Source: Nageia nagi (taxonomy: Eukaryota > Plantae > Pinophyta). Taken from it: a stretch of DNA of 64,000 nt. Position numbers and translations under genes: made by a program. Each line of letters begins with the position of its first letter. Position 1 is the first letter of the stretch. The stretch spans positions 134,168,001-134,232,000 of the forward strand of contig JBITNC010000001.1 in assembly GCA_050084985.1 (NCBI GenBank), given 5' to 3'. Of this stretch, positions 212 to 59,228 are shown piece after piece. The notes under the pieces were generated by a model. The model was given only the letters and a program-made list of their open reading frames with translations. It ran no database searches and was not told where the DNA came from.

Positions 212-3200
212 CTCATGCTCTTAAGAAGAATTTTAAGAAAGGTGGAAACAAGAAGAATTATGATCATAATAAGTCAAAGAAAACCAAATCTAATTTTGAT
301 AAAAATTATAATTTTTGTGGCATCTATGGCCATAAGGAAGTTGGTTGCTTCAAAAAAAAGAAAGATCAAAGTGAAAAAGAATCTAGAAAACCAAACAAAT
401 CTAATAATAAGAAAAAGAACAAGAATTATGCTTATGTTGCTATTTTTACTCTATGTCTTGCACTTTTTCAAATGATTAGATTGTTGATTCTAGATACACT
501 AATCACATGCATTTTTTAAAAGATAAATTTGAAATTTTTTATAAGTATTGAAAAGATGCAGTTGTGATAGGCGATAATTCATTCCTTGAAGTTCAAGGTA
601 TTGAAAGTGTATGGTTAAAAGGAAAGATTCTTAAGAATATGCTTTACGTACCAAAATTCACTATGAATCTCCTTTCCATAATTCAAATTGCAAGGAAAGG
701 TTAATCTTTTGAGTTTAACTCACACTCTTGGTGCATGAAAAAGGGTCTTGCCACTTTGATGAAAGGTCAAGTGAAAGATGACCTTTACATTATGGATCAT
801 TCTTTAAAAAGGATGTGTCTTACTATAAATGTTTTCTCTAAAGAAAATATTTGAGACCATAAATTAGGCACCTAAACCATAAGAACATTCAATTTATGAA
901 ATATCAAGAACTTATGGAAGGTTTACCTATAATTTCATCCATAATTGGTCTTTGTGAGAAGTGCATCCTAGAAAAAATGAATAATTTTTTTTTTTAAAAG
1001 ATAAGGCAACTAGAGACACTCAACCTCTTTAGCTTATGCATTCAAATTTGATGGGTCCATTTTTAACTAATTCACTTGGAGGAGAGTCTTATATCTTAAC
1101 CTTTATTGATGACTATAGCAAGATGCCATTTGGTTATCTTATAGAGCACAATGATCAAATATTTGATAAGTTCAAATATTTCAAAGCTTTAATAGAAAAT
1201 TAATTTAGATTTAAAATCAAGATTTTGAGATCTAATAATGGGATTGAATATAATAGCATTGAATTTAATGATTATTGTACCAAGTGTAGAATCAAAAGGT
1301 AGTTTATGATCCTTTACACTCCTTAACAAAATGGTGTAGCTGAAAGAAAAAATAAGACTATTCAAGAAATGGTAATATGTATGTTGGGAGATCTTTTTAG
1401 CTTTTTATGCAATGAAACTATAAATACTGTAATCTACATCTTAAATGAATATCCTATAAATGTAATTGAACATAAAACTTTGTATGAGGCATGGACAAAA
1501 AAGAAACCTAACATCTCTCACTTTAGGATCTTTGGTTGTGATGCTTATGCCTTTATTGTTCTTGAGAAAAGGAAGAAGTTGGATAAGAGATTCGAAAAGT
1601 GTATTTTTATGGGCTATAGAAATAAGCATAAAGGTTATAAGCTATATCAACCTTCCTCTAGAGCAATCTTTATATCTAGGTATGTAAAGTTTAATGAACT
1701 TCTTAAAGAATCTGCTTCTTATGAGAACCTTGATGAGGGTGATGATTCTTTTGTTGCACATAATTGAATGGATGTCAATGTGGATATGTCACCTAAGAAA
1801 CAAAAATCTCTAACATAAAGGATAATAAGAAGTACAACCCTTAAAATAAATCCTTATTTTTCAAAATTACTTGTAAGAATGAGCCCTCATCCTTCAAAGA
1901 AGCTTCAAAGCATGAGTGCTAGATGAATGCAATGAATGTGGAGTATGAGGCTCTAATGAAGAATCAAACTTAGGATTTGGTTTTTTATCCCAATGAATGA
2001 AATATGATTGGTAATAAATGGTTTTACAAGGTCAAATATAATTCACCTGAAAAAATTGAGAAATACGAAGCAAGGTTAGGAGCCAAGGGTTTTACTAAAA
2101 AATATAGAGTTGATTATGAAGATACCTTTGCTCTAGTGGAAAAGATGCCTACTTTTAGGGTAATCCTTTCTCTTTTAGGAGCTCAAGGATGATTTTTTTT
2201 TAACTTGATGTTAAGAGTGCTTTTATCAATGGTGAATTAGATGTGGAAATCTATATGAGCCAACCAAAAGAATTTTTTATGAAAGGTAAATAATATTTTA
2301 TTTGCAAGTTAAAAAAGTCTTTGTATGGATTTAAGTAAGCACCTTGGGCCTGGTACAAAAATATTTTATGATACTTTGAGTACATTAGGTTTTGTAAATG
2401 CTTTTTTGACACAGATCTTTATATGCTCAACCAAGGACAAGACTTGATCTTGATTCTTCTCTATGTGGATGATCTATTGATTATAGAGAATAATATAATC
2501 CTCATACAAGAGTGTATATTCAAATTCAAGGTAACTTTTGAAATAAAAGACCTTAGTTTATTGCACTACTACATTGGTATGTAAGTATATCAATACAAGG
2601 ATTGTACTTATCTTATTCAATCCAAGTATATCTTATATATCTTGCAAAAGTTTATAATGAAGGAATGCAAACCTATTGAAATCTTAGTTTTTCTTGAAAT
2701 CACTTTATCTCTTAGTACCAACTCTCAGTTGGAAGATGCTACAATTTATAGGCAATTATTTGATAGTCTTCTTTATTTGACTATGGTTAGATATTACCTT
2801 TTCCATGAATTTTATGGCTTCCTTTATACAAAAGCTGTATGTTGAGAACCTCAATGTAATTACATAATTGTTGAGGTATATTATGAAAACTAAGGATCTT
2901 ACTATCAAATATAACAAGTTACCCTCATTTGTTCTCTCAAGATTCTCATATTTTGACTATGGCAAAGATAGATGTGAACAAAATCAACCTCTTCTTATGT
3001 GTTTAGCATTGGATTAGATACTATCTCTTGGGCTTACAAGAAGTAACCAACCACTGCTCTCTCCACCATAAAGATTGAATATCGTGCAATGTCAATTGCA
3101 ACCTAGGAAGCCATTTGGTTGAGGCATATTTTGAAAGAAATTGGGCATAAGCAAGTTTTTTCATTTCAAATTTTTTTAGATAATCAATCAACTATTACTT

Positions 3201-3415
3201 TGGTAAAGAATCATGTTTTCCATTAGAGTATAAAGCATGTAGAAATCGAAGCCCACTTCATCAAAGAGAAGGTTCTAGATGGTATTTTACACTTGCAGTA
3301 TTATCCATCAATCCTAAACTCTAATGATTTATTCACTAAGCCGCTTCTTAAAGCCTAGTTCTCCAAGATTAGGGATTCTATTAGGTTGGTGAATTTTCCT
3401 CCAAAAAGAGAGTAA
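212..3415 (+). pseudogene. Degenerate copia gag-pol polyprotein (A)
   Basis: Zn-knuckle remnant FCGIYGHKEVGC (~313); protease D*IVDSRYTNHM (~473); pre-integrase HKLGHLNHK (~857); integrase HSNLMGPF, FIDDYS, PYTP*QNGVAERKN (1038-1353); RT IGNKWFYKVKY, LDVKSAF, LYVDDL (~2459); RNase H KHVEIEAHFIKEKV, DLFTKPL (~3233-3345). Many stops and frameshifts. Confidence 0.95.
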
Positions 3416-4889: not shown

Positions 4890-7800
4890 ATTTTAAAAAA
4901 ATATACCCCCACCATTCTACATCTTCTTGAGCTTGAAGGATATATTATGTAGAATTGTTTAATAGATTTAAAATTTTCAATGACTATAATGCCTAAGAGA
5001 GTATCATAAACTATTATTTTGATTCATACAAGACATTCTATAGGAGTGTTGTGGTTAGATGGGATAAATGTTAAAACTATTAGAGTAGTCAAAGATGTAC
5101 CAATGAGGTTACATAAGTATATTGGGATTTCCATTTTACAAGATATAATACTGGTTTATTTACCATCCTTATTTTATATTTATTTGTTAATAGAATCCAA
5201 AACCAATTTGGGTAGATATTTATCCATGGATTACTCTCATATAATGGTACTGTTTAAAGATAAGAGAGTCAAAATCTTGAATGAGGTGAGCACTTCTTTT
5301 TGCACAAAAAAAATTACCTCAATTCAATATTATATATGATGATGTTGAGATGATTGAGGGTCTGAAAGAAGTCTTGGAAATAAAGGATGAATTCTCCATC
5401 AATCAATTGAATCAAATAGAGGATATGGGTATGAGCACCTATTACATTTTGTATCTCGATACCATCATTCTAGCTTTGACCAAATATGATTTAAGAAAGT
5501 TTAAAGTATGGTAATTATTCTTTGATGACATCAAATCTAAGAATGGGGAAAGACTCTGAGTTATCTTGAGGTCCCCTTCAGAAGGAACCAAGATTTTCTC
5601 TTTTAGATTAACATGAAGCTGAACTAATACTATTGTGGAGTATAAAGTATTGTACTTAGGATTAGACCAAGGTATAAAGATGAAGATAAAGTGTCTTAGC
5701 ATATTCAACAACTCTGAGTTAGTGATAAATCAAGTAACAAATAAATGTTCAGCTAGGCACAATTATCTAAGATAATATAAAAATAAAATTTGGGACTTGT
5801 TAAAGAGATGTTTTATCTTAAATGTTATGTTAATACTAAGAAAATAAAATGATGAGGCAACTACTCTTAGAAAAAGAGGATCTAGGTTTGATGGTATTGA
5901 TCACTGGTTTAAAATAGAGGATATACAAACGACTTTTAGACCTTCAATATTAGATAATGATACTTTCTAGAAAGTATTCAAGGATGATGAGATTTTGGCC
6001 CAACAACCATTGTGCTGATTGGATTATCCAAATTCATTATCTAAATCTTTCAAAAAGGAAGATGTATTGTAACTCAAAAATAATATTATCCCAAAAGATG
6101 TAATTCCTTTCAAAAGACTCTTTGACAAAGATGACTAGTCAAAGCCAAATAAAGATATGGATAGTAAAAGGAGTTATTAAGAAATAGAGGTTTCTCTTGA
6201 AAAGTTATTGAAGGTAAGATCCCAAAACAAAGATGAAGATATTGATAATATCATTAAAACAACTAAAGAATTTGTTTGTATCATAGCATGGTCTTACCCA
6301 ACACACCATTGAGCCAGTTGAAGTGTCAAGGCCTTTCTGATAAAAGAAGATATTGAAGAAAAATATAATTTATTTGATTAAACATTCCACCTAGCTTTCT
6401 AAATTAGTACCAAAATGAAAGAACAATGGAGATATAAGACTTTATGTGAATTTTAGAAAGAACATATCTTGCCTACTATTGATGAAACAAAATATTTCTC
6501 ATTAATTGATAGCTTTTCAAGATACAATCATGTATGGGTGAAGGATGAGGATTAGTATAAAACCATATTTACAATAAACTAAGGGATATTTTCTTTCCAA
6601 CGAATGCCTTTTAGATGTCAATCAAATATCATGGGAAAATTTCAAAGAGCTATGGATCATGCTTTTAGGGATTTGGTAAATAAAATAGTTTGTATTTACC
6701 TATATGATATTATAGTGTTCTCACATTAGAATAAGTGTCATTTACAACATCTCCTATAGACTTTTATAAAATTTCAAGAGTTCAAAATTTATCTGAACCT
6801 AAAGAAATCAATCTTTATAGTAGGTGAAGGTAACCTATTGGGATATGTTATCTCAAAGGGAGGTTGGTTGATTGATTTGAAAAAGGTTAATGCAATATCA
6901 AAATTAATCATTCCTTGCAACAATAGGCTCTTCATTTACTCCTAGTCCACAAAATTAACTTTGTGAGAAGTTTTATTCAAGACTTTTTTGAAATAGTGTG
7001 ATCAATCACTGAGATGTTAAAAAATGAAGTTTCATTTATTTGGAAATGAGAGAGAAGACTTTTATTTGAATAAACTATGTTGGATATTATCAACATACCA
7101 GTTCTAAAGAACCCTTATTTCAACAAAGATTTTATATTATATACATATAGAGCTAATAAAACCAAAGTGATAGTACTGACACAAAATGAGGATAAAAATG
7201 ATGAGCATCCAATTTCTTTCTTTAGTTATACATTGCATTATGTTGATTAAATTTATGGTTTTATTTAGAAATAAGTATTTTTAATAATGAGAGAATTAAA
7301 CAAATCTAAACAGTATATCTCCTAGAGATGAATATTGGTTCTTACTAGTCATTTTGGTGTGAGAAATTATACTCTACAAGGAGAGATTGGTGAAGGAAGA
7401 GCTAGATTAATTTATAAGATTTTAAAGTATGATATAGAGATTCAACTTATAAAAGTGATGAAAGGAATATCTCTCTATTAGAAACTTGTGGTAGACATTT
7501 ATCAAACCAAGTATTCTTGCAAGAAGAGATCAATCAAGAAGAGAAATTGCTAAGTAATCAACAAGATTGGATTGTACAACTCTCCAAATATGTAAAGTTT
7601 GGTAAACCTCTAAATCATTTGAATGCCTCACAAAGAAGAAGATTTAAGCAAAATGCATTTAATTATGCCTTGGTGGAGAATGGGTTATTTAGGAAAAATC
7701 ATGATGGAGTATTACTAAAATGTATACATCCAGTTGAAGTTAATAAGGTTATAAAAGAGTTTCATTATAGCCTTGTAGGAGGATATTTTTCTGGCCACAC

Positions 7801-8397
7801 TACAACCATGAAGATTTTTCCAGTCAAGTATTATTGACCCTTAATATATATAGACTCTTTTATAATAGAAATAATTATAAAAAATTTCATAAATTCATTA
7901 AGAGGATGGAATGGTGCTAATATCGCTACAACCAACCATGGTAGAAGAACCCTTGCAATAGTGGGGAATTGATTTAATTGGTATGATAAATCCTAATTCT
8001 TCATCTTGATACAAGTTTATCCTAACCACTATTGACTATTTCATCAGATGGACTAAATTCATGGCAACCAAGAATGTAGATCAAGATACTATTATTACTT
8101 TCATGGAGTGAATAATAACCCATTTTGACATGCCATAGATAATTATATTTGATAATGGTCCCACATTCCTAGGAACAAAGCTTACAAAGTTTTTACTAAA
8201 GTATGACATTCATTGGAAACCTTCTTTGAATTATTATCCAAAGGGAAATGGATTAGATAAATATACTAATAAGAATCTATTGAGGATTATAAAAGAAGAT
8301 TTAATGAGTGAAAAAGGATTGGTATAAGAAGCTTGATATTTCTCTATGGGAAAATCAAATTACTTTCAAGTTATTAATTAAATCTTCCTTGAATACA
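4890..8397 (+). pseudogene. Degenerate Ty3/gypsy (Tat lineage) pol fragment: PR-aRH-RT-RH-INT
   Basis: Protease region PPPFYI...NCLID..SMTIMPK (~4905-5000); RT WVKDED*YKT, RMPF, FQRAMDHAF..VCIYLYDIIVFS (YLDD equivalent at 6697); RH FILYT..EHPISFFS (~7130-7230); integrase EFHYSLVGGYFSGHTT, WGIDLIG, IDYFIRW, DNGPTF, YYPKGNG (7757-8255). Confidence 0.92.
5509..5883 (+). pseudogene. Additional (archaeal/plant-type) RNase H domain, aRH
   Basis: One frame reads W*LFFDDIKSKNG..VILRSPSEG..FSFRL..TNTIVEYKVLYLGL..IFNNSELVINQV..RK*NDEA, matching the RNase HI-like FDG / TNNxAEYEAL / GDSELV / PRxxNxxAD motifs. Confidence 0.9.
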
Positions 8398-9044
8398 TTG
8401 ATAAATACTTATCACCTTACCTAGATGTCAAAGAAATATGCATATAGGAACTTTTCATGGATATATGATCTTGATATGCGAACCCTATACCAATAGTAGA
8501 CATGAATAACGATGTAGATGTGAACAGGAGCATGGATGCTAAGCTCACAAATGGTATTATGGACACAAGAGGGAGTGCGAACACTAAGCCTATGACTAGT
8601 AGAGTCCAGAACCAAGACCTAAATAGTAGTATGATAAATAACAAGCCTAGTATAGCATATAATAATAAAATGAAGAATGATAGAGCTATGTGATAATCAA
8701 ATCTCTATCCTAATAAGCGATGTTGAAGAACATCTTGAAAGATAATAAGCATGGGAATATGAGGAAGAGATCTGATGATGAATCCATATAAGGTCTTACC
8801 CCTCTTATAGGCAAGTGTACTCCTCCATAGGACATCTGGAGGCTAGCATCGATGTTGGGATACCTAAAAGAATAGAAAGACACCACATGAGTAATATTCC
8901 ATAATGGGCCAATATAACATATAATCATATAATGATATAATAAAACACTTAATAATATAATATAAAATAATATTATTATAATACGTGTTATAATATAACA
9001 CCTAAGAAGGGCCACATTAAGGGGATCAAATTTAAGTGTCAATA
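8398..9044 (-). repeat. Partial 3' LTR of T
   Basis: Collinear with 37688-38318 (TTGATAAATA.TTATCACCTTAC...AAATTTA.GT.T.AA.A); preceded on the minus strand by purine-rich AAAGGAGGGCATC (9045-9057). Confidence 0.85.
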
Positions 9045-9158: not shown

Positions 9159-9619
9159 TGCTAGAATTCCTAATGCATTATTGTTTGGTATCTAAAATGT
9201 GTCTCACTTACTTAATTCATCTAAATACTAAAAGTATTTAACAATACCTTTTTAGTATTTAGGAATTAAATAAATGTAACTTAATCATTCTTACCTCATG
9301 TAAACCTTAGATTAAATGGTGAGTTAAGGTGGGATTCTCTCCTATAAATAGAGGGATTAACCTTGTTGTAAACACACTTGAATAGAGTAAAGTTATGCTT
9401 ATGCTTTATCCGTTGATAAGATGAGAGAGAGGTTGTAAGAATTATATTTGAGAAGTAAAAGGTCTTGAGTTGAAGTGGAGTACCTCTCATCTTTGATAGG
9501 AACCACTGTACATGATTGTCTCACTTATGTGTGATTGAGTGATTATCTCTTGAGTTGTTGCTTAGAAGTAGAAGAATAGTCCAAGGTGATCTTGGGTATA
9601 GGAGGATTCATCTCTTTCA
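9159..9619 (+). repeat. 5' LTR of B
   Basis: TG...CA; TATAAATA at ~9343; collinear with 35146-35601. Confidence 0.93.
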
Positions 9620-9621
9620 AT

Positions 9622-9633
9622 TGGTACCGTAGT
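9622..9633 (+). promoter_or_regulatory. Degenerate primer-binding site (tRNA-iMet type)
   Basis: TGGTACCGTAGT 2 nt after LTR end; compare TGGTATCAAAGCC after the LTR of D. Confidence 0.7.
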
Positions 9634-12600
9634 CTACTTGGAGGCTCTTTCTACTTGTTCAAATTTTTAAGGTAAAATCATATTGAGGTATAATTTTCTC
9701 ACTCTCATTTATTTTGTTTAGCTCTTTTAAGCTCTTTTTTATTCGTACACATAATCTTATATTTGGTTTAAATTAGTTTTTTGGTGTAAGAATTGCTTAA
9801 GAGTAAGAACAATTTTTGTTGGTATGACAATATATTATTCTTATACATTTTATTTTACACACTAACTTTTTATGTTAGTTGCAATTTCTTTAGACAACTT
9901 ACTTAACATATTCTTAACAAAAAAGGGTTTGTAAATCTTGCAATTTCTTTTTAAAACAAGAAAGAATTTTTTTTAATAAAAAAGTCTACATTTTTGTGTT
10001 GTGTTTGTACAATTGTTTGTTATATTTTAAAAAAAGAAGTTTAATTACAATGCAAAAAAAAAAAATTGTGAATATAAATATAAATGTTATCAAGTTAAAT
10101 TTTTTTTTTCCAATACTGTAATGTAAATATAAAACTTACTAAAAACTTTGTAATTAAAAATATATTACATTTAATATTTTTTTTACGAGTCAAAGGTTGA
10201 AAATCAAAAAATTCTATTCATATTGAGGGTGGCTTCACCAGGCGGACGTCCAACACCCGCCGCCACCACCATGGGCGGCTCCAACGGGCGGATGCCATCA
10301 TCGTGGATGGATCCATCTGGCGGACGCCTTGCAACCCCACCACCATCGCCCCTTTTCATCCCTACTTCACAGCAAGCCATGCTACTTCCATCATGCCCAC
10401 CAGGCCACGTTCGGCCTCTCCACGTCGCGCCTCAACATGTCATTGGAGAAAGAAAGGTGAGTTCTCACTATGCCACCACCGTAGCCATCTCCTCCACCAC
10501 CACCTCCGCTGACATCTCCACCTTCACCTTTGTGCATTGCTGTTCAGCTAACTCTGCTCAGTCGGCGGTGCCTCTTCCCCTATGCACGGTTCCTTTGCTC
10601 ACCGATGTCACGCCAAGGAGGAAATATTTCTTATCAGATTCTATTATTAACATATTCACAACTTTTTGATAATTATATTAATGCAACTCATCCTTTTGTA
10701 CCTGGAATAACAAACTACGCAAGCCCCCCAACGGAGCCAATAGAAATCCTATCTGGATGCAAAAGATAAGAGGTAAGAAAAAATAGAAAATGTGATCCTT
10801 TTCCCCCCATGTCGCCCACACTTGGTGTGCACCATGTGTGGTTCATTTCCTACCTACTCATGGTGTGTTTTCGCTAGCCCTGGCCTCTTAGCCCCCTTGC
10901 CCCTCCTCTTTGCATTTGTCCCCTCTCCTCTTTCGTTAAATAGACCACAAACTTTTTTAATTAATTGACTCTTTTGCAAATAATAAAGAGACATACACAA
11001 GTTGTACAAATAGTATTTTTGAGCTTTAAAAGTTTTGTAAATTACTTAATTTGAATTTAAAACTCTTATTTATGGTTATAAGTGTAGTTGGTGTAAATAT
11101 TTAATGATTATTTTTATATGGTTATTTTTAAAGAGAAGTTATATTTTTCTTAATAAAGAAAGAATTTTTTAGGAAAAGAATGTTATTATAAGATTTTTTT
11201 TTTCTTCTTCTCCTATTATAAAGTAAGGATTCTTTTTTAAATCCCTTAATAATAGGAGGATGTTACTTCTTTAAGTAAAGTAATTTTTTACCTTTTTCTC
11301 TAAAAATGTGGGGGGGAGACAATGAAGTGTTTTTTTTTAAAAAAAAGAGAAGTGGATATTAGTCTTTGTTGCCTTAAAGATATTATTACTTAAAGAATTT
11401 ATGATGGAATTTTTTTTCCTCTCTTATCTTATCCTAACCTTGTTCTTGAAAATGTAAATAGGAGTGTTTGTGATGTCTTCTAAGCATAGGAAAGTAAGAT
11501 GTCTTATTGCGAGAATGAAGACTATTGACAAGAAGATGGAAAAGCTTTGGAAGAAAATAAGGAAGATAAAATGTAAAAATGGTCAATCTTTGCAAGACAA
11601 AGGAATGAAATCATAGCCCACATGCTTCACTTTCAAACTTGTTATATAGTGGACTACAATATTTTTATGATTGAGAAAATGGCTCTTCCTCTTGAATTGA
11701 GTCTTCTCTAAGAAATTTGTGTTAAATTAACCTTGTTTTATGATAATTCGCTAAGACGTATGTTGATATTGAGCATATTGTAAAGCTCCTAGAGCCTTGT
11801 TATGTAACTAGCCCAAAACTAAAGAAACTACTAACCCCTTATTATGTGTGGTTTTATTATGTGTGGTTTTCCTTCTTGTTTGTGATTAAACAATCAACAA
11901 ATGCTCAAATTAAGTTAAGTTAATGGTAAAATATGCACTAACTTCAACACTAACTTCAAATGCTACTTCATCCCTACTTCACAGCAAGCCATGCTACTTC
12001 CATCATGCCCACCAGGCCACGTTCAACCTCTCCACATTGCACCTCAACATGTCATTGGAGAAAGAAAGGTGAGTTCTCACTATGCCACCACCATAGCCAT
12101 ATCCCTACACCACCACCTCCACTGACATCTCCACCTTCACCTTTGTGCATTGCTGTTCAGCTAACTCTGCTCAGTCGGCGGTGCCTCTTCCCCTGTGCAC
12201 GGTTCCTTTGCTCACCGATGTCATGCCAAGGAGGAAATATTTCTTATCAAATTCTATTATTAACATATTCACAAATTTTTGATAATTATATTAATGCAAC
12301 TCATCCTTTTGTACCTGGAATAACAAACTACGCAAGCCCCCCAGCGGAGCCAATATAAATCCTATCTGGATGCGAAAGATAAGAGGTAAGAAAAAATAGA
12401 AAATGTGATCCTTTGCCCCCCATGTCGCCCACACTTGGTGTGCACCATCTGTGGTTCATTTCCTACCTACTCATGGTGTGTTGTCGCTAGCCCTGGCCTC
12501 TTAGCCCCCTTGCCCCTCCTCTTTGCATTCGCCCCCTCTCCTCTTTCGTAAAATAGACCATAAACTTTTTTAATTAATTGACTCTTTTGCAAATAATAAA

Positions 12601-14678
12601 GAGACATACACAAGTTTTACAAATAGTATTTTTGATCTTTAAAAGTTTTGCAAATTACTTGATTTGAATTTAAAACTCTTATTTATGGTTATAAGTGTAG
12701 TTGGTGTAAATATTTAATGATTATTATTATATGGTTATTTTTAAAGAGAAGTTATATTTTTCTTAATAAATAAAGGTTTTTTTAGGAAAAGAATGTTATT
12801 ATAAGATTTTTTTTCTTCTTCTTCTCTATTATAAAGTAAGGATTCTTTTTTAAATCCCTTAATAATAGGAGGATGTTACTTCTTTAAGTAAAGTAAATTT
12901 TTACCTTTTTCTCTAAAAATGTGGGGGGGAGACAATGAATTGTTTTTTTTTTAAAAAAAGAGAAGTGGATATTAGTCTTTGTTGCCTTAAAGATATTATT
13001 ACTTAAAGAATTTATGATGGAATTTTTTTCCCTCTCTTATCTTATCCTAACCTTGTTCTTGAAAATGTAAATAGGAGTGTTTGTGATGTCTTCTAAGCAT
13101 AGGAAAGTAAGATGTCTTATTGCGAGAATGAAGACTATTGACAAGAAGATGAAAAAGCTTTGGAAGAAAATAAGGAAGAAAAAATTGAAGATAAAATGCA
13201 AAAATGGTCAATCTTTGCGAGACAAAGGAATGAAATCATAGCCCACATGCTTCACTTTCAAACTTGTTATATAGTGGACTACAATATTTTTATGATTGAG
13301 AAAATGGCTCTTCCTCTTGAATTGAGTCTTCCTAAGCAATTTGTGTTAAATTAACCTTGTTTGTATGATAATTCACTAAGACTTATGTTGATATTGAGCA
13401 TATTGTAAAGCTCCTAGAGCCTTGTTATGTAACTAGCCCAAAACTAAAGAAACTACTAACCCCTTATTATGTGTGGTTTTCCTTCTTGTTTGTGATTAAA
13501 CAATCAACAAATGCTCAAATTAAGTTAAGTCAATGATAAAATATGCACTAACTTCAAATGCTACTCCATCCCTACTTCACAGCAAGCCATGCTACTTCCA
13601 TCATGCCCACCAGGCCACGTTCGACCTCTCCACATCGCTCCTCAACATGTCATTGTAGAAATAAAGGTGAGTTCTCACTATGCCACCACTGTAGCCATCT
13701 CCCTCCACCACCACCTCTGCTGACATCTCCACCTTCACCTTTGTGCATTGCTGTTCAGCTAACTCTGCTCAGTCGACAGTGCCTCTTCCCCTGTTTCATG
13801 GTTCCTTTGCTCACCAATGTCATGCCAAGGAGGAAATATTTCTTATCAGATTCTATTATTAACATATTCAAAATTTTTGATAATTATATTAATGCAACTC
13901 ATCCTTTTGTACCGGAATAACAAACTACGCAAGCCCCCCCAGTGGAGCGAATAGAAATCCTATCTGGATGCGAAAGATAAGAGGTAAGAAAAATAGAAAA
14001 TGTGATCCTTTTCCCCCCATGTCACCCACACTTGGTGTGCACCATGTGTGGTTCATTTCCTACCTACTTGTGGTGTGTTGTCGCTAGCCCTGGCCTCTTA
14101 GCCCCCTTGCCCCTCCTCTTTGCATTTGCCCCCTCTCCTCTTTCGTCAAATAGACCAAAACTTTTTTAATTAATTAACTCTTTTGCAAATAATAAAGAGA
14201 CATACACAAGTTTGTACAAATAGTATTTTTGAGCTTTAAAAGTTTTGCAAATTACTTGATTTGAATTTAAAAATCTTATTTATGGTTATAAGTGTAGTTG
14301 GTGTAAATATTTAATGATTATTTTTATATGGTTATTTTTAAAGAGAAGTTATATTTTTCTTAATAAAGAAAGAATTTCTTAGGAAAAGAATGTTATTATA
14401 AATTTTTTTTTCTTCTTCTCCTATTATAAGGTAGGATTCTTTTTTAAATCCCTTAATAATAGGAGGATGTTACTTCTTTAAGTAAAGTAATTTTTTACCT
14501 TTTTCTATAAAAATGTGGGGGGAGACAATGAAGTGTTTTTTTTTTTTAAAAAGAGAAGTGGATATTAGTCTTTGTTTCCTTAAAGATATTATTACTTAAA
14601 GAATTTATGATGGAATTTTTTTTCCTCTCTTATCTTATCCTAACCTTGTTCTTGAAAATGTAAATAGGAGTGTTTGTG

Positions 14679-14930
14679 ATGTCTTCTAAGCATAGGAAAG
14701 TAAGATGTCTTATTGCGAGAATGAAGACTATTGACAAGAAGATGGAAAAGCTTTGGAAGAAAATAAGGAAGATAAAATATGAAGATAAAATGCAAAAATG
14801 GTCAATCTTTGCGAGACAAAGGAATGAAATCATAGCCCACATGCTTCACTTTCAAACTTGTTATATAGTGGACTACAATATTTTTATGATTGAGAAAATG
14901 GCTCTTCCTCTTGAATTGAGTCTTCCCTAA
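14679..14930 (+). CDS. Leader small ORF, 83 aa, basic and probably helical, unknown function (unit 3)
   Basis: MSSKHRKVRCLIARMK...LELSLP*; protein-level homologue at 61168-61410; acceptor-like motif upstream. Confidence 0.5.
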   Translation: MSSKHRKVRCLIARMKTIDKKMEKLWKKIRKIKYEDKMQKWSIFARQRNEIIAHMLHFQTCYIVDYNIFMIEKMALPLELSLP

Positions 14931-16288
14931 GCAATTTGTGTTAAATTAACCTCGTTTGTATGATAATTCGCTAAGACTTATGTTCATATTGAGCATATTG
15001 TAAAGCTCCTAGAGCCTTGTTATGTAACTAGCCCAAAACTAAAGAAACTACTAACCCCTTATTATGTGTGGTTTTCCTTCTTGTTTGTGATTAAACAATC
15101 AACAAATGCTCAAATTAAGTTAATTCAATGGTAAAATATGCACTAACTTCAACACTAACTTCAAATGCTACTTCATCCCTACTTCACAGCAAGCCATGCT
15201 ACTTCCATCATGCCCACCAGGCCACGTTCGGCCTCTCCCCATCGTGCCTCAACATGTCATTGGAGAAAGAAAGGTGAGTTCTCACTATGCCACCACCATA
15301 TCCATCTCCCTCCACCACCACCTCTGCTGACATCTCCACCTTCACCTTTGTGCATTGCTGTTCAACTAACTCTGCTCAGTCGGCGGTGCCTCTTCCCCTG
15401 TGCACGGTTCCTTTGCTCACCGATGTCATGCAGGGAGGAAATATTTCTTATCAGATTCTATTATTAACATATTCACAACTTTTTGATAATTATATTAATG
15501 CAACTCATCCTTTTGTACCTGGAATAACAAACTACGCAAGCCCCCCAACGGAGCCAATAGAAATCCTATCTGGATGCGAAAGATAAGAGGTAGGAAAAAA
15601 TAGAAAATGTGATCCTTTTCCCCCCATGTTGCCCACACTTGGTGTACACCATGTGTGGTTCATTTCCTACCTACTCGTGGTGTGTTTTCGCTAGCCCTGG
15701 CCTCTTAGCCCCTTGCCCCTCCTCTTTGCATTTGCCCCCTCTCCTCTTTCGTAAAATAGACCATAAACTTTTTTAATTAATTGACTCTTTTGCAAATAAT
15801 AAAGAGACATACACAAGTTTTACAAATAGTATTTTGGAGCTTTAAAATTTTTGCAAATTACTTGATTTGAATTTAAAACTCTTATTTATGGTTATAAGTG
15901 TAGTTGGTGTAAATATTTAATGATTATTATTATATGGTTATTTTTAAAGAGAAGTTATATTTTTCTTAATAAATAAAGGTTTTTTTAGGAAAATAATGTT
16001 ATTATAAGATTTTTTTCTTGTTCTTCTCCTATTATAAAGTAAGGATTCTTTTTTAAATCCCTTAATAATAGGAGGATGTTACTTCTTTAAGTAAAGTAAA
16101 TTTTTACCTTTTTCTCTAAAAATGTGGGGGGGAGACAATGAAGTGTTTTTTTTTTTAAAAAAGAGAAGTGGATATTAGTCTTTGTTGCCTTAAAGATATT
16201 ATTACTTAAAGAATTTATGATGGAATTTTTTTCCCTCTCTTATCTTATCCTAACCTTGTTCTTGAAAATGTAAATAGGAGTGTTTGTG

Positions 16289-16540
16289 ATGTCTTCTAAG
16301 CATAGGAAAGTAAGATGTCTTATTGCGAGAATGAAGACTATTGACAAGAAGATGGAAAAGCTTTGGAAGAAAATAAGGAAGAAAAAATATGAAGATAAAA
16401 TGCAAAAATGGTCAATCTTTGCGAGACAAAGGAATGAAATCATAGCCCACATGCTTCACTTTCAAACTTGTTATATAGTGGACTACAATATTTTTATGAT
16501 TGAGAAAATGGCTCTTCCTCTTGAATTGAGTCTTCCCTAA
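16289..16540 (+). CDS. Leader small ORF, 83 aa (unit 4)
   Basis: Intact ATG-TAA copy. Confidence 0.5.
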   Translation: MSSKHRKVRCLIARMKTIDKKMEKLWKKIRKKKYEDKMQKWSIFARQRNEIIAHMLHFQTCYIVDYNIFMIEKMALPLELSLP

Positions 16541-17883
16541 GCAATTTGTGTTAAATTAACCTTGTTTGTATGATAATTCACTAAGACTTATGTTGATATT
16601 GAGCATATGGTAAAGCTCCTAGAGCCTTGTTATGTAACTAGCCCAAAACTAAAGAAACTACTAACCCCTTATTATGTGTGGTTTTCCTTCTTGTTTGTGA
16701 TTAAACAATCAACAAATGCTCAAATTAAGTTAAGTCAATGATAAAATATGCACTAACTTCAAATGCTACTTCATCCCTACTTCACAGCAAGCCATGCTAC
16801 TTCCATCATGCCCACCAGGCCACGTTCGACCTCTCCACATCGCGCCTCAACATGTCATTGTAGAAATAAAGGTGAGTTTTCACTATGCCACCACTGTAGC
16901 CATCCCTCCACCACCACCTCTGCTGACATCTCCACCTTCACCTTTGTGCATTGCTGTTCAGCTAACTCTGCTCAGTCGACAGTGCCTCTTCCCCTGTGCA
17001 TGTTTCCTTTGCTCACCGATGTCATGCCAAGGAGGAAATATTTCTTATCAGATTCTATTATTAACATATTCATAACTTTTTGATAATTATATTAATGCAA
17101 CTCATCCTTTTGTACCCGGAATAACAAACTACGCAAGCCCCCCAGTGGAGCGAATAGAAATCCTATCTGGATAAGAAAGATAAGAGGTAAGAAAAAATAG
17201 AAAATGTGATCCTTTTCCCCCCATGTCACCCACACTTGGTGTGCACCATGTGTGGTTCATTTCCCACCTACTCCTGGTGTGTTGTCGCTAGCCCTGGCCT
17301 CTTAGCCCCCTTGCCCCTCCTCTTTGCATTTTCCCCTCTCCTCTTTCGTCAAATAGACCACAAACTTTTTTAATTAATTGACTCTTTTGCAAATAATAAA
17401 GAGACATACACAAGTTGTACAAATAGTATTTTTGGGCTTTAAAAGTTTTGCAAATTACTTGATTTGAATTTAAAAATCTTATTTATGGTTATAAGTGTAG
17501 TTGGTGTAAATATTTAATGATTATTTTTATATGGTTATTTTTAAAGAGAAGTTATATTTTTCTTAATAAAGAAAGAATTTCTTAGGAAAAGAATGTTATT
17601 ATAATGTTTTTTTTTCTTCTTCTCCTATTATAAAGTAGGGTTCTTTTTTAAATCCCTTAATAATAGGAGGATGTTACTTCTTTAAGTAAAGTAATTTTTT
17701 ACCTTTTTCTCTATAAATGTGGGGGGGAGACAATCAAGTGTTTTTTTTTTTTAAAAAGAGAAGTGGATATTAGTCTTTGTTGCCTTAAAGATATTATTAC
17801 TTAAAGAATTTATGATGGAATTTTTTTTCCTCTCTTATCTTATCCTAACCTTATTCTTGAAAATGTAAATAGGAGTGTTTGTG

Positions 17884-18135
17884 ATGTCTTCTAAGCATAG
17901 GAAAGTAAGATGTCTTATTGCGAGAATGAAGACTATTGACAAGAAGATGGAAAAGCTTTGGAAGAAAATAAGGAAGAAAAAATATGAAGATAAAATGCAA
18001 AAATGGTCAATCTTTGCGAGACAAAGGAATAAAATCATAGCCCACATGCTTCACTTTCAAACTTGTTATATAGTGGACTACAATATTTTTATGATTGAGA
18101 AAATGGCTCTTCCTCTTGAATTGAGTCTTCCCTAA
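17884..18135 (+). CDS. Leader small ORF, 83 aa (unit 5)
   Basis: Intact ATG-TAA copy. Confidence 0.5.
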   Translation: MSSKHRKVRCLIARMKTIDKKMEKLWKKIRKKKYEDKMQKWSIFARQRNKIIAHMLHFQTCYIVDYNIFMIEKMALPLELSLP

Positions 18136-19494
18136 GCAATTTGTGTTAAATTAACCTCGTTTGTATGATAATTCGCTAAGACTTATGTTGATATTGAGCA
18201 TATTGTAAAGCTCCTAGAGCCTTGTTATGTAACTAGCCCAAAACTAAAGAAACTACTAACCCCTTATTATGTGTGGTTTTCCTTCTTGTTTGTGATTAAA
18301 CAATCAACAAATGCTCAAATTAAGTTAATTCAATGGTAAAATATGCACTAACTTCAACACTAACTTCAAATGCTACTTCATCCCTACTTCACAGCAAGCC
18401 ATGCTACTTCCATCATGCCCACCAGGCCATGTTCGGCCTCTCCCCATCGCGCCTCAACATGTCATTGGAGAAAGAAAGGTGAGTTCTCACTATGCCACCA
18501 CCATATCCATCTCCCTCCACCACCACCTCTGCTGACATCTCCACCTTCACCTTTGTGCATTGCTGTTCAGCTAACTCTGCTCAGTCGGCAGTGCCTCTTC
18601 CCCTGTGCACGGTTCCTTTGCTCACCGATGTCACGCCAGGGAGGAAATATTTCTTATCAGATTCTATTATTAACATATTCACAACTTTTTGATAATTATA
18701 TTAATGCAACTCATCCTTTTGTACCTGGAATAACAAACTACGCAAGCCCCCCAACGGAGCCAATAGAAATCCTATCTGGATGCGAAAGATAAGAGGTAGG
18801 AAAAAATAGAAAATGTGATCCTTTTCCCCCCATGTCGCCCACACTTGGTGTGCACCATGTGTGGTTCATTTCCTACCTACTCGTGGTGTGTTTTCGCTAG
18901 CCTTGGCCTCTTAGCCCCCTTGCCCCTCCTCTTTGCATTCGCCCCCTCTCCTCTTTCGTAAAATAGACCATAAACTTTTTTAATTAATTGACTCTTTTGC
19001 AAATAATAAAGAGACATACACAAGTTTTACAAATAGTATTTTTGAGCTTTAAAAGTTTTGCAAATTACTTGATTTGAATTTAAAACTCTTATTTATGGTT
19101 ATAAGTGTAGTTGGTGTAAATATTTAATGATTATTATTATATGGTTATTTTTAAAGAGAAGTTATATTTTTCTTAATAAATAAAGGTTTTTTAGGAAAAG
19201 AATGTTATTATAAGATTTTTTTCTTTTCTTCTCCTATTATAAAGTAAGGATTCTTTTTTAAATCCCTTAATAATAGGAGGATGTTACTTCTTTAAGTAAA
19301 GTAAATTTTTACCTTTTTCTCTAAAAATGTGGGGGGGAGACAATGAAGTGTTTTTTTTTTTAAAAAAGAGAAGTGGATATTAGTCTTTGTTGCCTTAAAG
19401 ATATTATTACTTAAATAATTTATGATGGAATTTTTTTTCCCTCTCTTATCTTATCCTAACCTTGTTCTTGAAAATGTAAATAGGAGTGTTTGTG

Positions 19495-19746
19495 ATGTCT
19501 TCTAAGCATAGGAAAGTAAGATGTCTTATTGCGAGAATGAAGACTATTGACAAGAAGATGGAAAAGCTTTGGAAGAAAATAAGGAATAAAAAATATGAAG
19601 ATAAAATGCAAAAATGGTCAATCTTTGCGAGACAAAGGAATGAAATCATAGCCCACATGCTTCACTTTCAAACTTGTTATATAGTGGACTACAATATTTT
19701 TATTTTTGAGAAAATGGCTCTTCCTCTTGAATTGAGTCTTCCCTAA
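19495..19746 (+). CDS. Leader small ORF, 83 aa (unit 6)
   Basis: Intact ATG-TAA copy. Confidence 0.5.
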   Translation: MSSKHRKVRCLIARMKTIDKKMEKLWKKIRNKKYEDKMQKWSIFARQRNEIIAHMLHFQTCYIVDYNIFIFEKMALPLELSLP

Positions 19747-22700
19747 GCAATTTGTGTTAAATTAACCTTGTTTGTATGATAATTCACTAAGACTTATGTT
19801 GATATTGAGCATATTGTAAAGCTCCTAGCCTTGTTATGTAACTAGCCCAAAACTAAAGAAACTACTAACCCCTTATTATGTGTGGTTTTCCTTCTTGTTT
19901 GTGATTAAACAATCAACAAATGCTCAAATTAAGTTAATTCAATGGTAAAATATGCACTAACTTCAACACTAACTTCAAATGCTACTTCATCCCTACTTCA
20001 CAGCAAGCCATGCTACTTCCATCATGCCCACCAGGCCACGTTCGACCTCTCCACATCGCGCCTCAACATGTCATTGTAGAAATAAAGGTGAGTTTTCACT
20101 ATGCCACCACTGTAGCCATCTCCCTCCACCACCACCTCTGCTGACATCTCCACCTTCACCTTTGTGCATTGCTGTTCAGCTAACTCTGCTCAGTCGGTAG
20201 TGCCTCTTCCCCTGTGCATGTTTCCTTTGCTCACCGATGTCATGCCAAGGAGGAAATATTTCTTATCAGATTCTATTATTAACATATTCATAACTTTTTT
20301 GATAATTATATTAATGCAACTCATCCTTTTGTACCTGAATAACAAACTACGCAAGCCCCCCAACGGAGCCAATAGAAATCCTATCTGGATGCGAAAGATA
20401 AGAGGTAGGAAAAAATAGAAAATGTGATCCTTTTCCCCCCATGTTGCCCACACTTGGTGTACACCATGTGTGGTTCATTTCCTACCTACTCGTGGTGTGT
20501 TTTCGCTAGCCCTGGCCTCTTAGCCCCTTGCCCCTCCTCTTTGCATTTGCCCCCTCTCCTCTTTCGTAAAATAGACCATAAACTTTTTTAATTAATTGAC
20601 TCTTTTGCAAATAATAAAGAGACATACACAAGTTTTACAAATAGTATTTTGGAGCTTTAAAATTTTTGCAAATTACTTGATTTGAATTTAAAACTCTTAT
20701 TTATGGTTATAAGTGTAGTTGGTGTAAATATTTAATGATTTATTTTTATATGGTTATTTTTAAAGAGAAGTTATATTTTTCTTAATAAAGAAAGAATTTC
20801 TTAGGAAAAGAATGTTATTATAATATTTTTTTTTCTTCTTCTCCTATTATAAAGTAGGGATTCTTTTTTAAATCCCTTAATAATAGGAGGATGTTACTTC
20901 TTTAAGTAAAGTAAATTTTTACCTTTTTCTCTAAAAATGTGGGGGGAGATAATGAAGTGTTTTTTTTAAAAAAAAAGAGAAGTGGATATTAGTCTTTGTT
21001 GCCTTAAAGATATTATTACTTAAAGAATTTATGATGGAATTTTTTTTCCTCTCTTATCTTATCCTAACCTTGTTCTTGAAAATGTAAATAGGAGTGTTTG
21101 TGATGTCTTCTAAGCATAGGAAAGTAAGATGTCTTATTGCGAGAATGAAGACTATTGACAAGAAGATGGAAAAGCTTTGGAAGAAAATAAGGAAGAAAAA
21201 ATATGAAGATAAAATGCAAAAATGGTCAACCTTTGCGAGACAAAGGAATGAAATCATAGCCCACATGCTTCACTTTCAAACTTGTTATATAGTGGACTAC
21301 AATATTTTTATGATTGAGAAAATGGCTCTCCTCTTGAATTGAGTCTTTCCTAAGAAATTTGTGTTAAATTAACCTTGTTTTTATGATAATTCGCTAAGAC
21401 TTATGTTGATATTGAGCATATTGTAAAGCTCCTATAGCCTTGTTATGTAACTAGCCCAAAACTAAAGAAACTACTAACCCCTTATTATGTGTGGTTTTCC
21501 TTCTTGTTTGTGATTAAACAATCAACAAATGCTCAAATTAAGTTAAGTCAATGGTAAAATATGCACTAACTTCAACACTAACTTCAAATGCTACTCCATC
21601 CCTACTTCACAGCAAGCCATGCTACTTCCATCATGCCCACCAGGCCACGTTCGACCTCTCCACATCGCGCCTCAACATGTCATTGTAGAAATAAAGGTGA
21701 GTTTTCACTATGCCACCACTGTAGCCATCTCCCTCCACCACCACCTCTGCTGACATCTCCACCTTCACCTTTGTGCATTGCTGTTCAGCTAACTCTGCTC
21801 AGTCGGCAGTGCCTCTTCCCCTGTGCACGGTTCCTTTGCTCACCGATGTCATGCCAAGGAGGAAATATTTCTTATCAGATTCTATTATTAACATATTCAT
21901 AACTTTTTGATAATTATATTAATGCAACTCATCCTTTTGTACCTGGAATAACAAACTACGCAAGCCCCCCAGTGGAGCGAATAGAAATCCTATCTGGATG
22001 CGAAAGATAAGAGGTAAGAAAAAATAGAAAATGTGATCCTTTTCCCCCATGTCACCCACACTTGGTGTGCACCATGTGTGGTTCATTTCCTACCTACTCG
22101 TGGTGTGTTGTCGCTAGCCCTGGCCTCTTAGCCCCCTTGCCCCTCCTCTTTGCATTTGCCCCCTCTCCTCTTTCGTCAAATAGACCACAAACTTTTTTAA
22201 TTAATTGACTCTTTTGCAAATAATAAAGAGACATACACAAGTTGTACAAATAGTATTTTTGGGCTTTAAAAGTTTTGCAAATTACTTGATTTGAATTTAA
22301 AAATCTTATTTATGGTTTATAAGTGTAGTTGGTGTAAATATTTAATGATTATTTTTATATGGTTATTTTTAAAGAGAAGTTATATTTTTCTTAATAAAGA
22401 AAGAATTTCTTAGGAAAAGAATGTTATTATAATATTTTTTTTTCTTCTTCTCCTATTATAAAGTAGGGATTCTTTTTTAAATCCCTTAATAATAGGAGGA
22501 TGTTACTTCTTTAAGTAAAGTAAATTTTTACCTTTTTCTCTAAAAATGTGGCGGGGAGAAATGAAGTTTTTTTTTAAAAAAAAAGAGAAGTGGATATTAG
22601 TCTTTGTTGCCTTAAAGATATTATTACTTAAAGAATTTATGATGGAATTTTTTTTCCTCTCTTATCTTATCCTAACCTTGTTCTTGAAAATGTAAATAGG

Positions 22701-24300
22701 AGTGTTTGTGATGTCTTCTAAGCATAGGAAAGTAAGATGTCTTATTGCGAGAATGAAGACTATTGACAAGAAGATGGAAAAGCTTTGGAAGAAAATAAGG
22801 AAATAAAATATGAAGATAAAATGTAAAAATGGTCAATCTTTGCAAGACAAAGGAATGAAATCATAGCCCACATGCTTCACTTTCAAACTTGTTATATAGT
22901 GGACTACAATATTTTTATGATTGAGAAAATGGCTCTTCCTCTTGAATTGAGTCTTCTCTAAGAAATTTGTGTTAAATTAACCTTGTTTTTATGATAATTC
23001 GCTAAGACTTATGTTGATATTGAGCATATTGTAAAGCTCCTATAGCCTTGTTATGTAACTAGCCCAAAACTAAAGAAACTACTAACCCCTTATTATGTGT
23101 GGTTTTCCTTCTTGTTTGTGATTAAACAATCAACAAATGCTCAAATTAAGTTAAGTCAATGATAAAATATGCACTAACTTCAAATGCTACTTCATCCCTA
23201 CTTCACAGCAAGCCATGTACTTCCATCATGCCCACCAGGCCACGTTCGACCTCTCCACATCGTGCCTCAACATGTCATTGTAGAAATAAAGGTGAGTTCT
23301 CACTATGCCACCACTGTAGCCATCTCCCTCCACCACCACCTCTGCTGACATCTCCACCTTCACCTTTATGCATTGCTGTTCAGCTAACTCTGCTCAGTCG
23401 ACAGTGCCTCTTCCCTGTGCATGTTTCCTTTGCTCACCGATGTCATGCCAAGGAGGAAATATTTCTTATCAGATTCTATTATTAACATATTCATAACTTT
23501 TTGATAATTATATTAATGCAACTCATCCTTTTGTACCTGGAATAACAAAATACGCAAGCCCCCCAGTGGAGCGAATAGAAATCCTATCTGGATGCGAAAG
23601 ATAAGAGGTAAGAAAAAATAGAAAATGTGATCCTTTTCCCCCCATGTCACCCACACTTGGTGTGCACCATGTGTGGTTCATTTCCTACCTACTGTGGTGT
23701 GTTGTCGCTAGCCCTGGCCTCTTAGCCCCCTTGCCCCTCCTCTTTGCATTTGCCCCCTCTCCTCTTTCGTCAAATAGACCAAACTTTTTTAATTAATTGA
23801 CTCTTTTGCAAATAATAAAGAGACATACACAAGTTGTACAAATAGTATTTTTGAGCTTTAAAAGTTTTGCAAATTACTTGATTTGAATTTAAAATCTTAT
23901 TTATGGTTATAAGTGTAGTTGGTGTAAATATTTAATGATTATTTTTATATGGTTATTTTTAAAGAGAAGTTATATTTTTCTTAATAAAGAAAGAATTTCT
24001 TAGGAAAAGAATGTTATTATAATATTTTTTTTTCTTCTTCTCCTATTATAAAGTAGGGATTCTTTTTTAAATCCCTTAATAATAGGAGGATGTTACTTCT
24101 TTAAGTAAAGTAATTTTTTACCTTTTTCTCTAAAAATGTGGGGGGGAGACAATGAAGTGTTTTTTTTAAAAAAAAAGAGAAGTGGATATTAGTCTTTGTT
24201 CCTTAAAGATATTATTACTTAAAGAATTTATGATGGAATTTTTTTCCTCTCTTATCTTATCCTAACCTTGTTCTTGAAAATGTAAATAGGAGTGTTTGTG

Positions 24301-24552
24301 ATGTCTTCTAAGCATAGGAAAGTAAGATGTCTTATTGCGAGAATGAAGACTATTGACAAGAAGATGGAAAAGCTTTGGAAGAAAATAAGGAAGATAAAAT
24401 ATGAAGATAAAATGCAAAAATGGTCAATCTTTGCGAGACAAAGGAATGAAATCATAGCCCACATGCTTCACTTTCAAACTTGTTATATAGTGGACTACAA
24501 TATTTTTATGATTGAGAAAATGGCTCTTCCTCTTGAATTGAGTCTTCCCTAA
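24301..24552 (+). CDS. Leader small ORF, 83 aa (unit 9)
   Basis: Intact ATG-TAA copy. Confidence 0.5.
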   Translation: MSSKHRKVRCLIARMKTIDKKMEKLWKKIRKIKYEDKMQKWSIFARQRNEIIAHMLHFQTCYIVDYNIFMIEKMALPLELSLP

Positions 24553-25910
24553 GCAATTTGTGTTAAATTAACCTCGTTTGTATGATAATTCGCTAAGACT
24601 TATGTTCATATTGAGCATATTGTAAAGCTCCTAGAGCCTTGTTATGTAACTAGCCCAAAACTAAAGAAACTACTAACCCCTTATTTATGTGTGGTTTTCC
24701 TTCTTGTTTGTGATTAAACAATCAACAAATGCTCAAATTAAGTTAATTCAATGGTAAAATATGCACTAACTTCAACACTAACTTCAAATGCTACTTCATC
24801 CCTACTTCACAGCAAGCCATGCTACTTCCATCATGCCCACCAGGCCACGTTCGGCCTCTCCCCATCGTGCCTCAACATGTCATTGGAGAAAGAAAGGTGA
24901 GTTCTCACTATGCCACCACCATATCCATCTCCCTCCACCACCACCTCTGCTGACATCTCCACCTTCACCTTTGTGCATTGCTGTTCAACTAACTCTGCTC
25001 AGTCGGCGGTGCCTCTTCCCCTGTGCACGGTTCCTTTGCTCACCGATGTCACGCAGGGAGGAAATATTTCTTATCAGATTCTATTATTAACATATTCACA
25101 ACTTTTTGATAATTATATTAATGCAACTCATCCTTTTGTACCTGGAATAACAAACTACGCAAGCCCCCCAACGGAGCCAATAGAAATCCTATCTGGATGC
25201 GAAAGATAAGAGGTAGGAAAAAATAGAAAATGTGATCCTTTTCCCCCATGTTGCCCACACTTGGTGTACACCATGTGTGGTTCATTTCCTACCTACTCGT
25301 GGTGTGTTTTCGCTAGCCCTGGCCTCTTAGCCCCCTTGCCCCTCCTCTTTGCATTTGCCCCCTCTCCTCTTTCGTAAAATAGACCATAAACTTTTTTAAT
25401 TAATTGACTCTTTTGCAAATAATAAAGAGACATACACAAGTTTTACAAATAGAATTTTGGAGCTTTAAAATTTTTGCAAATTACTTGATTTGAATTTAAA
25501 ACTCTTATTTATGGTTATAAGTGTAGTTGGTGTAAATATTTAATGATTATTTTTATATGGTTATTTTTAAAGAGAAGTTATATTTTTCTTAATAAAGAAA
25601 GAATTTCTTAGGAAAAGAATGTTATTATAATATTTTTTTTTCTTCTTCTCCTATTATAAAGTAGGGATTCTTTTTTAAATCCCTTAATAATAGGAGGATG
25701 TTACTTCTTTAAGTAAAGTAAATTTTTACCTTTTTCTCTAAAAATGTGGGGGGGAGATAATGAAGTGTTTTTTTTAAAAAAAAAGAGAAGTGGATATTAG
25801 TCTTTGTTGCCTTAAAGATATTATTACTTAAAGAATTTATGATGGAATTTTTTTTCCTCTCTTATCTTATCCTAACCTTGTTCTTGAAAATGTAAATAGG
25901 AGTGTTTGTG

Positions 25911-26162
25911 ATGTCTTCTAAGCATAGGAAAGTAAGATGTCTTATTGCGAGAATGAAGACTATTGACAAGAAGATGGAAAAGCTTTGGAAGAAAATAAGG
26001 AAGAAAAAATATGAAGATAAAATGCAAAAATGGTCAACCTTTGCGAGACAAAGGAATGAAATCATAGCCCACATGCTTCACTTTCAAACTTGTTATATAG
26101 TGGACTACAATATTTTTATGATTGAGAAAATGGCTCTTCCTCTTGAATTGAGTCTTTCCTAA
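25911..26162 (+). CDS. Leader small ORF, 83 aa (unit 10)
   Basis: Intact ATG-TAA copy (ends LSLS). Confidence 0.5.
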   Translation: MSSKHRKVRCLIARMKTIDKKMEKLWKKIRKKKYEDKMQKWSTFARQRNEIIAHMLHFQTCYIVDYNIFMIEKMALPLELSLS

Positions 26163-34350: not shown

Positions 34351-34464
34351 GGGGAAGTGAATTGTGAAATTTTGTTGAATACATTTTTTATGATGAAAAC
34401 TTCAATCCTACGAGGATATTTTAGTTGTATAGTGTTGATATTTTTGTACACTTATATTTTTTGG

Positions 34465-40140: not shown

Positions 40141-40229
40141 GCATATGATGGAATAAGGTAGCATTAATATATTAACATGAATTCAATTTTTATTAATGGG
40201 ATTAAGGTGAAAAAAATTACAATTTTGGA

Positions 40230-59226: not shown

Positions 59227-59228
59227 AG

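Follow-up and report, generated by a model that had tools for sequence, protein, structure and literature searches.

A decayed Ty1/copia retrotransposon of Nageia nagi carries, between its 5′ long terminal repeat (LTR) and gag, a small open reading frame that is very probably a real, fast-evolving gene of its copia lineage. This ORF, which we call ORF83, lies in a 64,000-nucleotide stretch of contig JBITNC010000001.1 (the window), to which coordinates refer unless another contig is named. An earlier note on this DNA proposed a conserved accessory ORF of the family, encoding a basic, helical protein without a described domain, and our analysis supports that proposal. Judged by sequence, the product belongs to a protein family that comprises three or more subtypes and has no database match. 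Copia elements are usually considered to need gag-pol alone.

Element B and its amplified leader

The window is AT-rich (26–36% GC) and made up of stacked decayed retroelements. One of them, element B, is a complete but decayed Ty1/copia insertion with two LTRs, a 5-bp target-site duplication (TAGAA), a purine tract and a decayed TGG motif resembling a primer-binding site (PBS). Along the plus strand, the first TAGAA copy precedes the 5′ LTR, delimited by self-BLAST (9159–9619), and the TGG motif follows (9622–9628). The broken and decayed gag-pol, recognized by its Pfam domains, occupies 29976–34360, and the 3′ LTR (35146–35601) comes after the polypurine tract and ahead of the second TAGAA. 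The domains have the copia-type order Retrotran_gag_2, Pol_BBD, gag_pre-integrs, SH3_retrovirus and RVT_2, with Retrotran_gag_2 and gag_pre-integrs scoring below the cut-off. In two further elements of the window, C and D, the counterpart of the TGG motif reads TGGTATCA, which we take to be a primer-binding site of the tRNA-Met type. This type of site and the anatomy of the elements make a land-plant host likely.

The leader of B was later amplified 12-fold, producing a tandem array of 12 units with a period of 1590–1613 nt (10355–29607, plus strand). Every unit contains a GC-rich island, a splice-acceptor-like site and a copy of the ORF, and the copy in the last unit (29118–29369, plus strand) runs on into unique leader and gag. 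The units are only 0.5–4.3% apart, whereas the two LTRs, each about 460 nt long, differ by 15%, so the array spread, or was homogenised, long after insertion. It amounts to a dead copia leader turned into a young 1.6-kb satellite. Its units form two loosely alternating groups (units 3, 5, 8, 9 and 11, and units 4, 6, 7 and 10), a pattern that suggests multi-unit duplications.

Several other features were seen in and around these elements. A GC-rich island stands at the same leader position in every family member with little sequence in common (about 10200–10950 in B, 49200–49700 and 59830–60200 elsewhere in the window, and 108–700 in the metagenome contig L001 described below), and the island of B contains the donor-like sequences AG/GTGAGT and AG/GTAAGA. 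A solo LTR of a related subfamily, with AATAT flanks, sits inside the RNase H region of B near the end of gag-pol (about 33696–34170) and has by far the deepest contig coverage in three DNA runs. Tandem repeats of 45–58 nt occur in the 3′ regions of elements (34460–34637, 40011–40615, 45393–45708, 62311–62813 and 63407–64000). An LTR-like pair with 78% identity and an integrase-like remnant flank B (7433–9037 and 37688–38311), and B would be nested in this older insertion; the remnant, which has no Pfam match, is presumably of gypsy type.

The ORF83 family and its coding signature

The ORF quoted in the earlier note is confirmed in array unit 3, where it runs from ATG to TAA over 83 codons (14679–14930, plus strand). 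An ATG-initiated ORF of at least 83 codons arises in 19 of 2,000 shuffles of the AT-rich leader. Each array unit had been said to carry the ORF; 8 of the 12 copies are intact and the others are frameshifted, at 11473, 13086, 21103 and 22711. Among the units 13 sites within the ORF vary, 11 of them by missense, one by nonsense and one by synonymous change, a spectrum that shows no selection on the array copies, which drift neutrally. An intact ORF beside a decayed gag-pol was likewise rejected as a sign of recent selection, because 83 clean codons would be expected with P = 0.10–0.16 at the lesion density of B.

In B the ORF ends at its own stop 606 nt before gag. The layout is identical in L001, a metagenome contig that shares this leader and in which an open ORF of 84 codons (64% identical) precedes a broken gag. 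The ORF is a sense frame upstream of, and separate from, the polyprotein, and all seven relatives recovered with HMMER are at most 80 residues long; a fusion between ORF and gag is ruled out by the stop position common to the copies. An overlapping antisense ORF of 70 codons (14630–14842) was also dismissed, as every antisense frame has at least two stops in L001 and at least four in D.

Many further copies exist outside the window: contigs covering the ORF region number 174, 289 and 92 in the three DNA runs. Along L001, codon 2 is ATG, as in B, at 86–100% of depth in these runs, and no indel common to at least 25% of depth falls inside the ORF in any of them, with indels listed just before it (1270 and 1271) and just after it (1545). 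Searching 1.84 billion representatives with HMMER returned 7 protein relatives of 40–80 residues, and a word search with a wider alignment returned 11; pairwise identity among relatives is 31–80%. There are three subtypes, a B-type, a D-type (P0006) and a third type (P0009), which are 31–47% identical to one another. The start region and stop position are common to further relatives at 31–77% identity, also among members that are only 34–46% identical, and the stop column is the same in all full-length members. A protein tree of nine rows has no supported branch. No relative was found in a protein scan of IMG/VR, and ten IMG/VR pattern loci proved to be chance matches. For gag there are 25 relatives, all from metagenome or read assemblies; one ORF relative (P0015) and one gag relative (P0024) are Logan records whose longest contig is 3622 nt in each case, possibly the same contig.

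Element D (about 58600–64000, plus strand) has an acceptor-like site (61128–61155) followed by an ORF homologue (61168–61410, plus strand). The homology drawn earlier between this frame and ORF83 holds at 40% amino acid identity (tblastn E = 8 × 10−13), with the same stop position and breaks only at codons 1 and 41, but the D copy has 80 codons rather than 83 and its alignment includes one 9-nt in-frame gap. The description of the ORF as lying upstream of gag applies to B and L001 only, as D has no gag-pol behind it: neither gag nor pol was found from the end of the ORF to the remaining piece of RNase H, its last ~40 codons. P0006, an independent D-type record, is open over all 80 codons and identical to D at 58 of the 80.

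Element C (38806–51121, minus strand) has an LTR pair 83% identical with near-matching 5-bp flanks. The remnant of the ORF reported there (48340–48495, minus strand) is a positional, frameshifted one: its MSNVLF stretch is homologously placed in the leader, but its match to the family profile is not significant (−0.3 bits, E = 25) and covers positions 8–39 of the profile instead of the start. Loss of the frame in C implies that the ORF is dispensable for some derivatives. Both C and D lack gag and pass from leader-like DNA into the RNase H end through a common junction in the last RNase H codons, which suggests that they derive from old internal deletions and together form an old non-autonomous sublineage. 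A short integrase remnant is present in C downstream of the RNase H junction (46325–46408).

The case that the ORF is coding is carried by comparisons of B, L001 and D. In a three-way alignment the 252 nt of the ORF are interrupted by a single in-frame gap (9 nt), where the downstream leader has 29 over 606 nt and the upstream leader 10 over 293 nt; an ORF of this length would be expected to have about 12. The dN/dS ratio is 0.36 between L001 and D (bootstrap 0.17–0.70) and 0.52 between B and D (0.24–1.10); true gag-pol, compared at a similar depth (B against the element at 295–3251), gives 0.42. When the substitutions between L001 and D are permuted, 36 identical residues are kept against 26.4 expected (P about 0.001); no such excess is seen in the other two sense frames, and a weaker one occurs in one antisense frame (P about 0.01). 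Thus the proposed check of dN/dS and frame preservation favours coding through the deeper dN/dS values and the indels, with L001–D significant, B–D borderline (BLOSUM P = 0.03–0.06) and B–L001 powerless. For this last pair, mismatches are spread 17/17/19 over the codon positions (dN/dS 0.67, P = 0.17–0.32) and true gag also lacks a codon signal (dN/dS 0.90), because post-insertion decay dominates. In the DNA runs, 33 variants inside the ORF (from 40 of 61 variant rows) include 10 synonymous changes against 7.9 expected (P = 0.24).

These data also bear on a reading in which there is no functional protein and the segment is either a conserved cis-acting part of the leader or an upstream frame that regulates through being translated, irrespective of its product. 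Such a reading would suit the close pairs, which have no codon signal, and the protein relatives, which derive from gene callers and are therefore open by construction. It would also suit the outcome of a check set beforehand, that the ORF be more conserved than the flanking leader: at the nucleotide level no such excess is present, with identity between B and L001 at 79% in the ORF against 87% in the downstream leader, and three-way identity at 53% against 50–58% downstream. The deficit of gaps, the amino-acid-level excess specific to the sense frame of the ORF in L001–D and the retention of start region and stop position among divergent members nevertheless make it improbable, and we retain the reading of a protein-coding gene.

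Leader signals and predicted splicing

Signals in the leader make it probable that the ORF is expressed through splicing. A candidate donor, AAG/GTAAA, lies 50 nt behind the 5′ LTR of B (9669–9676, plus strand) and recurs after the PBS of C (50550); a search of D for this donor-like site found none. A predicted 3′ splice site composed of a branch-point-like CTAAC, a pyrimidine tract and AG (acceptor 1; 14640–14667, plus strand) lies 11 nt before the start of ORF83. B, L001 and D all have the same arrangement, CTAAC...AATAG/GA, 10–12 nt ahead of the first codon; the three agree at 24 of its 34 columns, compared with 67 of 259 columns of the upstream leader (measured in the last array unit). From acceptor 1 to a shared serine codon the distance is 14, 16 and 15 nt in B, L001 and D, respectively, a variation in spacing from which it follows that the exon would start untranslated. 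A second predicted 3′ splice site, again with branch-point-like and acceptor-like sequence (acceptor 2; 29956–29973, plus strand), is placed 2 nt before the gag ATG (29976) and is also found in L001.

In B, 30 ATGs separate the donor-like site from acceptor 1, and a further 16 lie after the stop of the ORF and ahead of gag. With so many leader ATGs, simple scanning would reach neither the ORF nor gag, and in combination with the acceptor-like sites we infer splicing. The four ATGs that B has in the last 270 nt before the donor-like site speak against this, as does the lack of that site in D. One donor near the primer site would be joined either to acceptor 1, yielding the ORF83 RNA, or to acceptor 2, yielding the gag-pol RNA, and the unspliced RNA would be the genome.

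The conserved downstream leader of B (29370–29975, plus strand) contains a sense-strand cluster of (A)CTAAC and TACTAAC motifs, with 8 CTAAC where shuffles contain 1.3. Comparable sense-strand clusters occur in L001 (8 copies; 1531–2175 of that contig), D (4 copies; 61411–62030) and C (4 copies; 47801–48330), against 0 in 3715 nt of gag-pol. The cluster may act as a set of decoy branch points or as an array of binding sites. An Rfam search of the last unit and leader gave one chance-level match only.

The predicted protein, its possible role and known accessory ORFs

Family members have a pI of 9.8–10.2 (10 for ORF83) and 12–16 lysines and arginines in their first 40 residues. Structure prediction gives one long helix (residues 11/12–63/75) followed by a non-helical tail (pLDDT 77 and 83, pTM 0.41 and 0.45), and no transmembrane segment was detected (maximum 19-residue hydropathy 0.93). 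The best-kept parts of the protein are its two ends, with a modal fraction of 0.78 each against 0.65–0.72. The tail of ORF83, LPLELSL (codons 76–82; 14904–14924, plus strand), has the form LxLxLxL and resembles the EAR motif. All nine full tails have the ending L-x-[LIM]-x-[LIF]-P, and four of the nine, including that of the window, have a strict LxLxL, which appears in the last 12 residues of 0.1–0.8% of shuffles, for a motif that was noticed post hoc. The leucine missing from the other five may reflect decay, or may mean that the tail is not an EAR motif. According to two EAR studies, such motifs are most often C-terminal and occur in extended LxLxLxL forms (PMC9956375), and they bind TOPLESS in extended form with all three leucines mattering (PMC4646777).

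Database searches returned few leads. No Pfam family reached the cut-off for the ORF or its relatives, and neither bMERB nor Snf7 appeared at E up to 1 (eight members) or up to 10 (three proteins). The family profile matches the bMERB domain of EHBP1 over positions 13–58 (E = 0.003–0.004), and only EHBP1 chains were matched. The ESM Atlas gave no usable match for ORF83; a CHMP1/Snf7 cluster scored 0.89, with an Snf7 model at row 10, a score that below 0.9 counts as a lead only. DUF1140, the first Atlas match for P0004 (0.93), was set aside as the other top rows gave no support. Foldseek against the PDB found nothing at E 0.001, and the best hits of a wide VIA fold search (Z 6.4) are generic long helices, including bZIPs. 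The absence of bMERB and Snf7 from the matches in these fold searches is uninformative because the model is a single helix.

We tentatively prefer a model, as yet short of probable, in which ORF83 is an accessory gene expressed from spliced leader RNA whose product is a basic, helical nuclear self-regulator with a nucleic-acid-binding half and a TOPLESS-type corepressor tail. In this model the protein would be translated from the spliced leader RNA, its basic half is predicted to bind nucleic acid, with the (A)CTAAC cluster as predicted target, and its LxLxL-like tail would recruit a TOPLESS-type corepressor, the partner being assumed; the predicted nuclear protein would thereby regulate expression of its own element. 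That the product is a nuclear self-regulator of some kind has about an even chance of being right, and the EAR/TOPLESS mechanism in particular is doubtful. A more specific version, in which a copia-encoded EAR microprotein from an alternatively spliced leader recruits TOPLESS, either damping the element itself or repressing genes of host defence, and is kept even without gag-pol, appears unlikely. That a D-type record is open, in a subtype whose window copy has no gag-pol, is consistent with a factor that acts on the element encoding it.

The same features can be read in other ways. A regulator of RNA in the manner of Rev or Rex would place its basic helix on the ACUAAC cluster of the leader RNA and use the hydrophobic tail as an export signal, setting the balance between unspliced genome and spliced gag-pol RNA. 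The predicted multi-acceptor leader would suit such a factor, as would the sense-only (A)CTAAC cluster, present in all four elements and absent from gag-pol, and the ORF that stays open in the D-type record though D has no gag-pol. The cluster presumably resembles branch-point and STAR-protein sites, and the spacing of M70, M74, L78 and L80 matches what we take to be one export-signal pattern. However, the supposed export helix contains a proline, the leucines of the tail have a 1-1-1 spacing that presumably agrees more closely with EAR than with Rev, and lysines make up most of the basic residues. Sequence and fold searches returned neither Rev nor Rex, and we hold this role to be unlikely. 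Less likely again is a cytoplasmic or particle helper, a helical hairpin binding Gag, membranes or trafficking proteins through bMERB-like Rab binding or an ESCRT-III-like fold. The EHBP1 match and the CHMP1/Snf7 cluster speak for it, but the former is confined to EHBP1 chains, Pfam gave neither domain, Foldseek nothing at its threshold, and the VIA score represents generic long-helix similarity.

An anti-silencing or activating factor resembling VANC, which would bind clustered motifs in element DNA and lift methylation or recruit activators, we judge similarly improbable. Small transposable-element accessory proteins with coiled-coil helices do include the anti-silencing factor VANC21 (PMC13547354). 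The motif cluster adjoins the gene, and a self-acting activator would account for retention without gag-pol; yet the protein has no acidic activation region, its tail resembles a repression motif and no homology was found. The earlier note had suggested a transactivator among its guesses, and a repressor-type tail, on its sequence, points away from a plain one.

Larger 5′ extra ORFs (eORFs) are already known in plant LTR elements. In the REXdb survey (PMC6317226), 5′ eORFs characterize gypsy lineages and are entered for only 2 of 16 copia rows, a column whose reading is slightly uncertain because of blank cells; sense-strand 5′ frames (eORF-5′F) are given for 21% of Ogre, 33% of Tekay and 23% of TatII elements, and for 5% of Bianca and 4% of Ikeros among copia. 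ORF83 resembles these frames in lying in sense between 5′ LTR and gag, in evolving fast and in being lineage-limited, and differs in having its own acceptor-like site and 80–84 codons, as the survey counted only extra frames of at least 250 codons (PMC6317226). ORF0 of rice Retrosat2 is likewise an extra frame, of unassigned function and more divergent than the polyprotein, but that element is set apart by LTRs of more than 3 kb, against about 460 nt here (PMC3485330). Extra ORFs of plant LTR elements are mostly 3′ of pol; like ORF83, the env-like ORF of SIRE and antisense 3′ ORFs such as gene23 of Grande, whose product is nuclear, have been proposed to act like retroviral regulatory factors, but they lie between pol and the 3′ LTR, whereas ORF83 is 5′, far smaller and without a transmembrane segment (PMC7264820).

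ORF83 resembles TOPLESS-binding EAR repressors (PMC9956375, PMC4646777), and EAR-bearing pathogen effectors such as HaRxL21 and Jsi1, in a C-terminal LxLxL(xL) pattern set in a tail that is predicted to be non-helical and follows a basic region. It differs from EAR repressors in its lack of a recognised DNA-binding domain, in the strict motif being present in only four of nine tails and in being encoded by a retrotransposon. The openly available literature searched contained no precedent for a retrotransposon-encoded EAR protein, and the word 'transposon' occurs 0 times in the review of EAR motifs (PMC9956375). A small spliced 5′ ORF in copia is likewise not described in that literature, which included part of the REXdb survey.

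Small accessory genes of this kind have been invisible by design, because the main plant survey took only extra frames of at least 250 codons. Natural intact members of the ORF family exist. With its two predicted acceptors, the leader could allow a single LTR to drive two products, and should the tail prove to be a genuine EAR motif, the element would be drawing on the same corepressor that pathogen effectors hijack.
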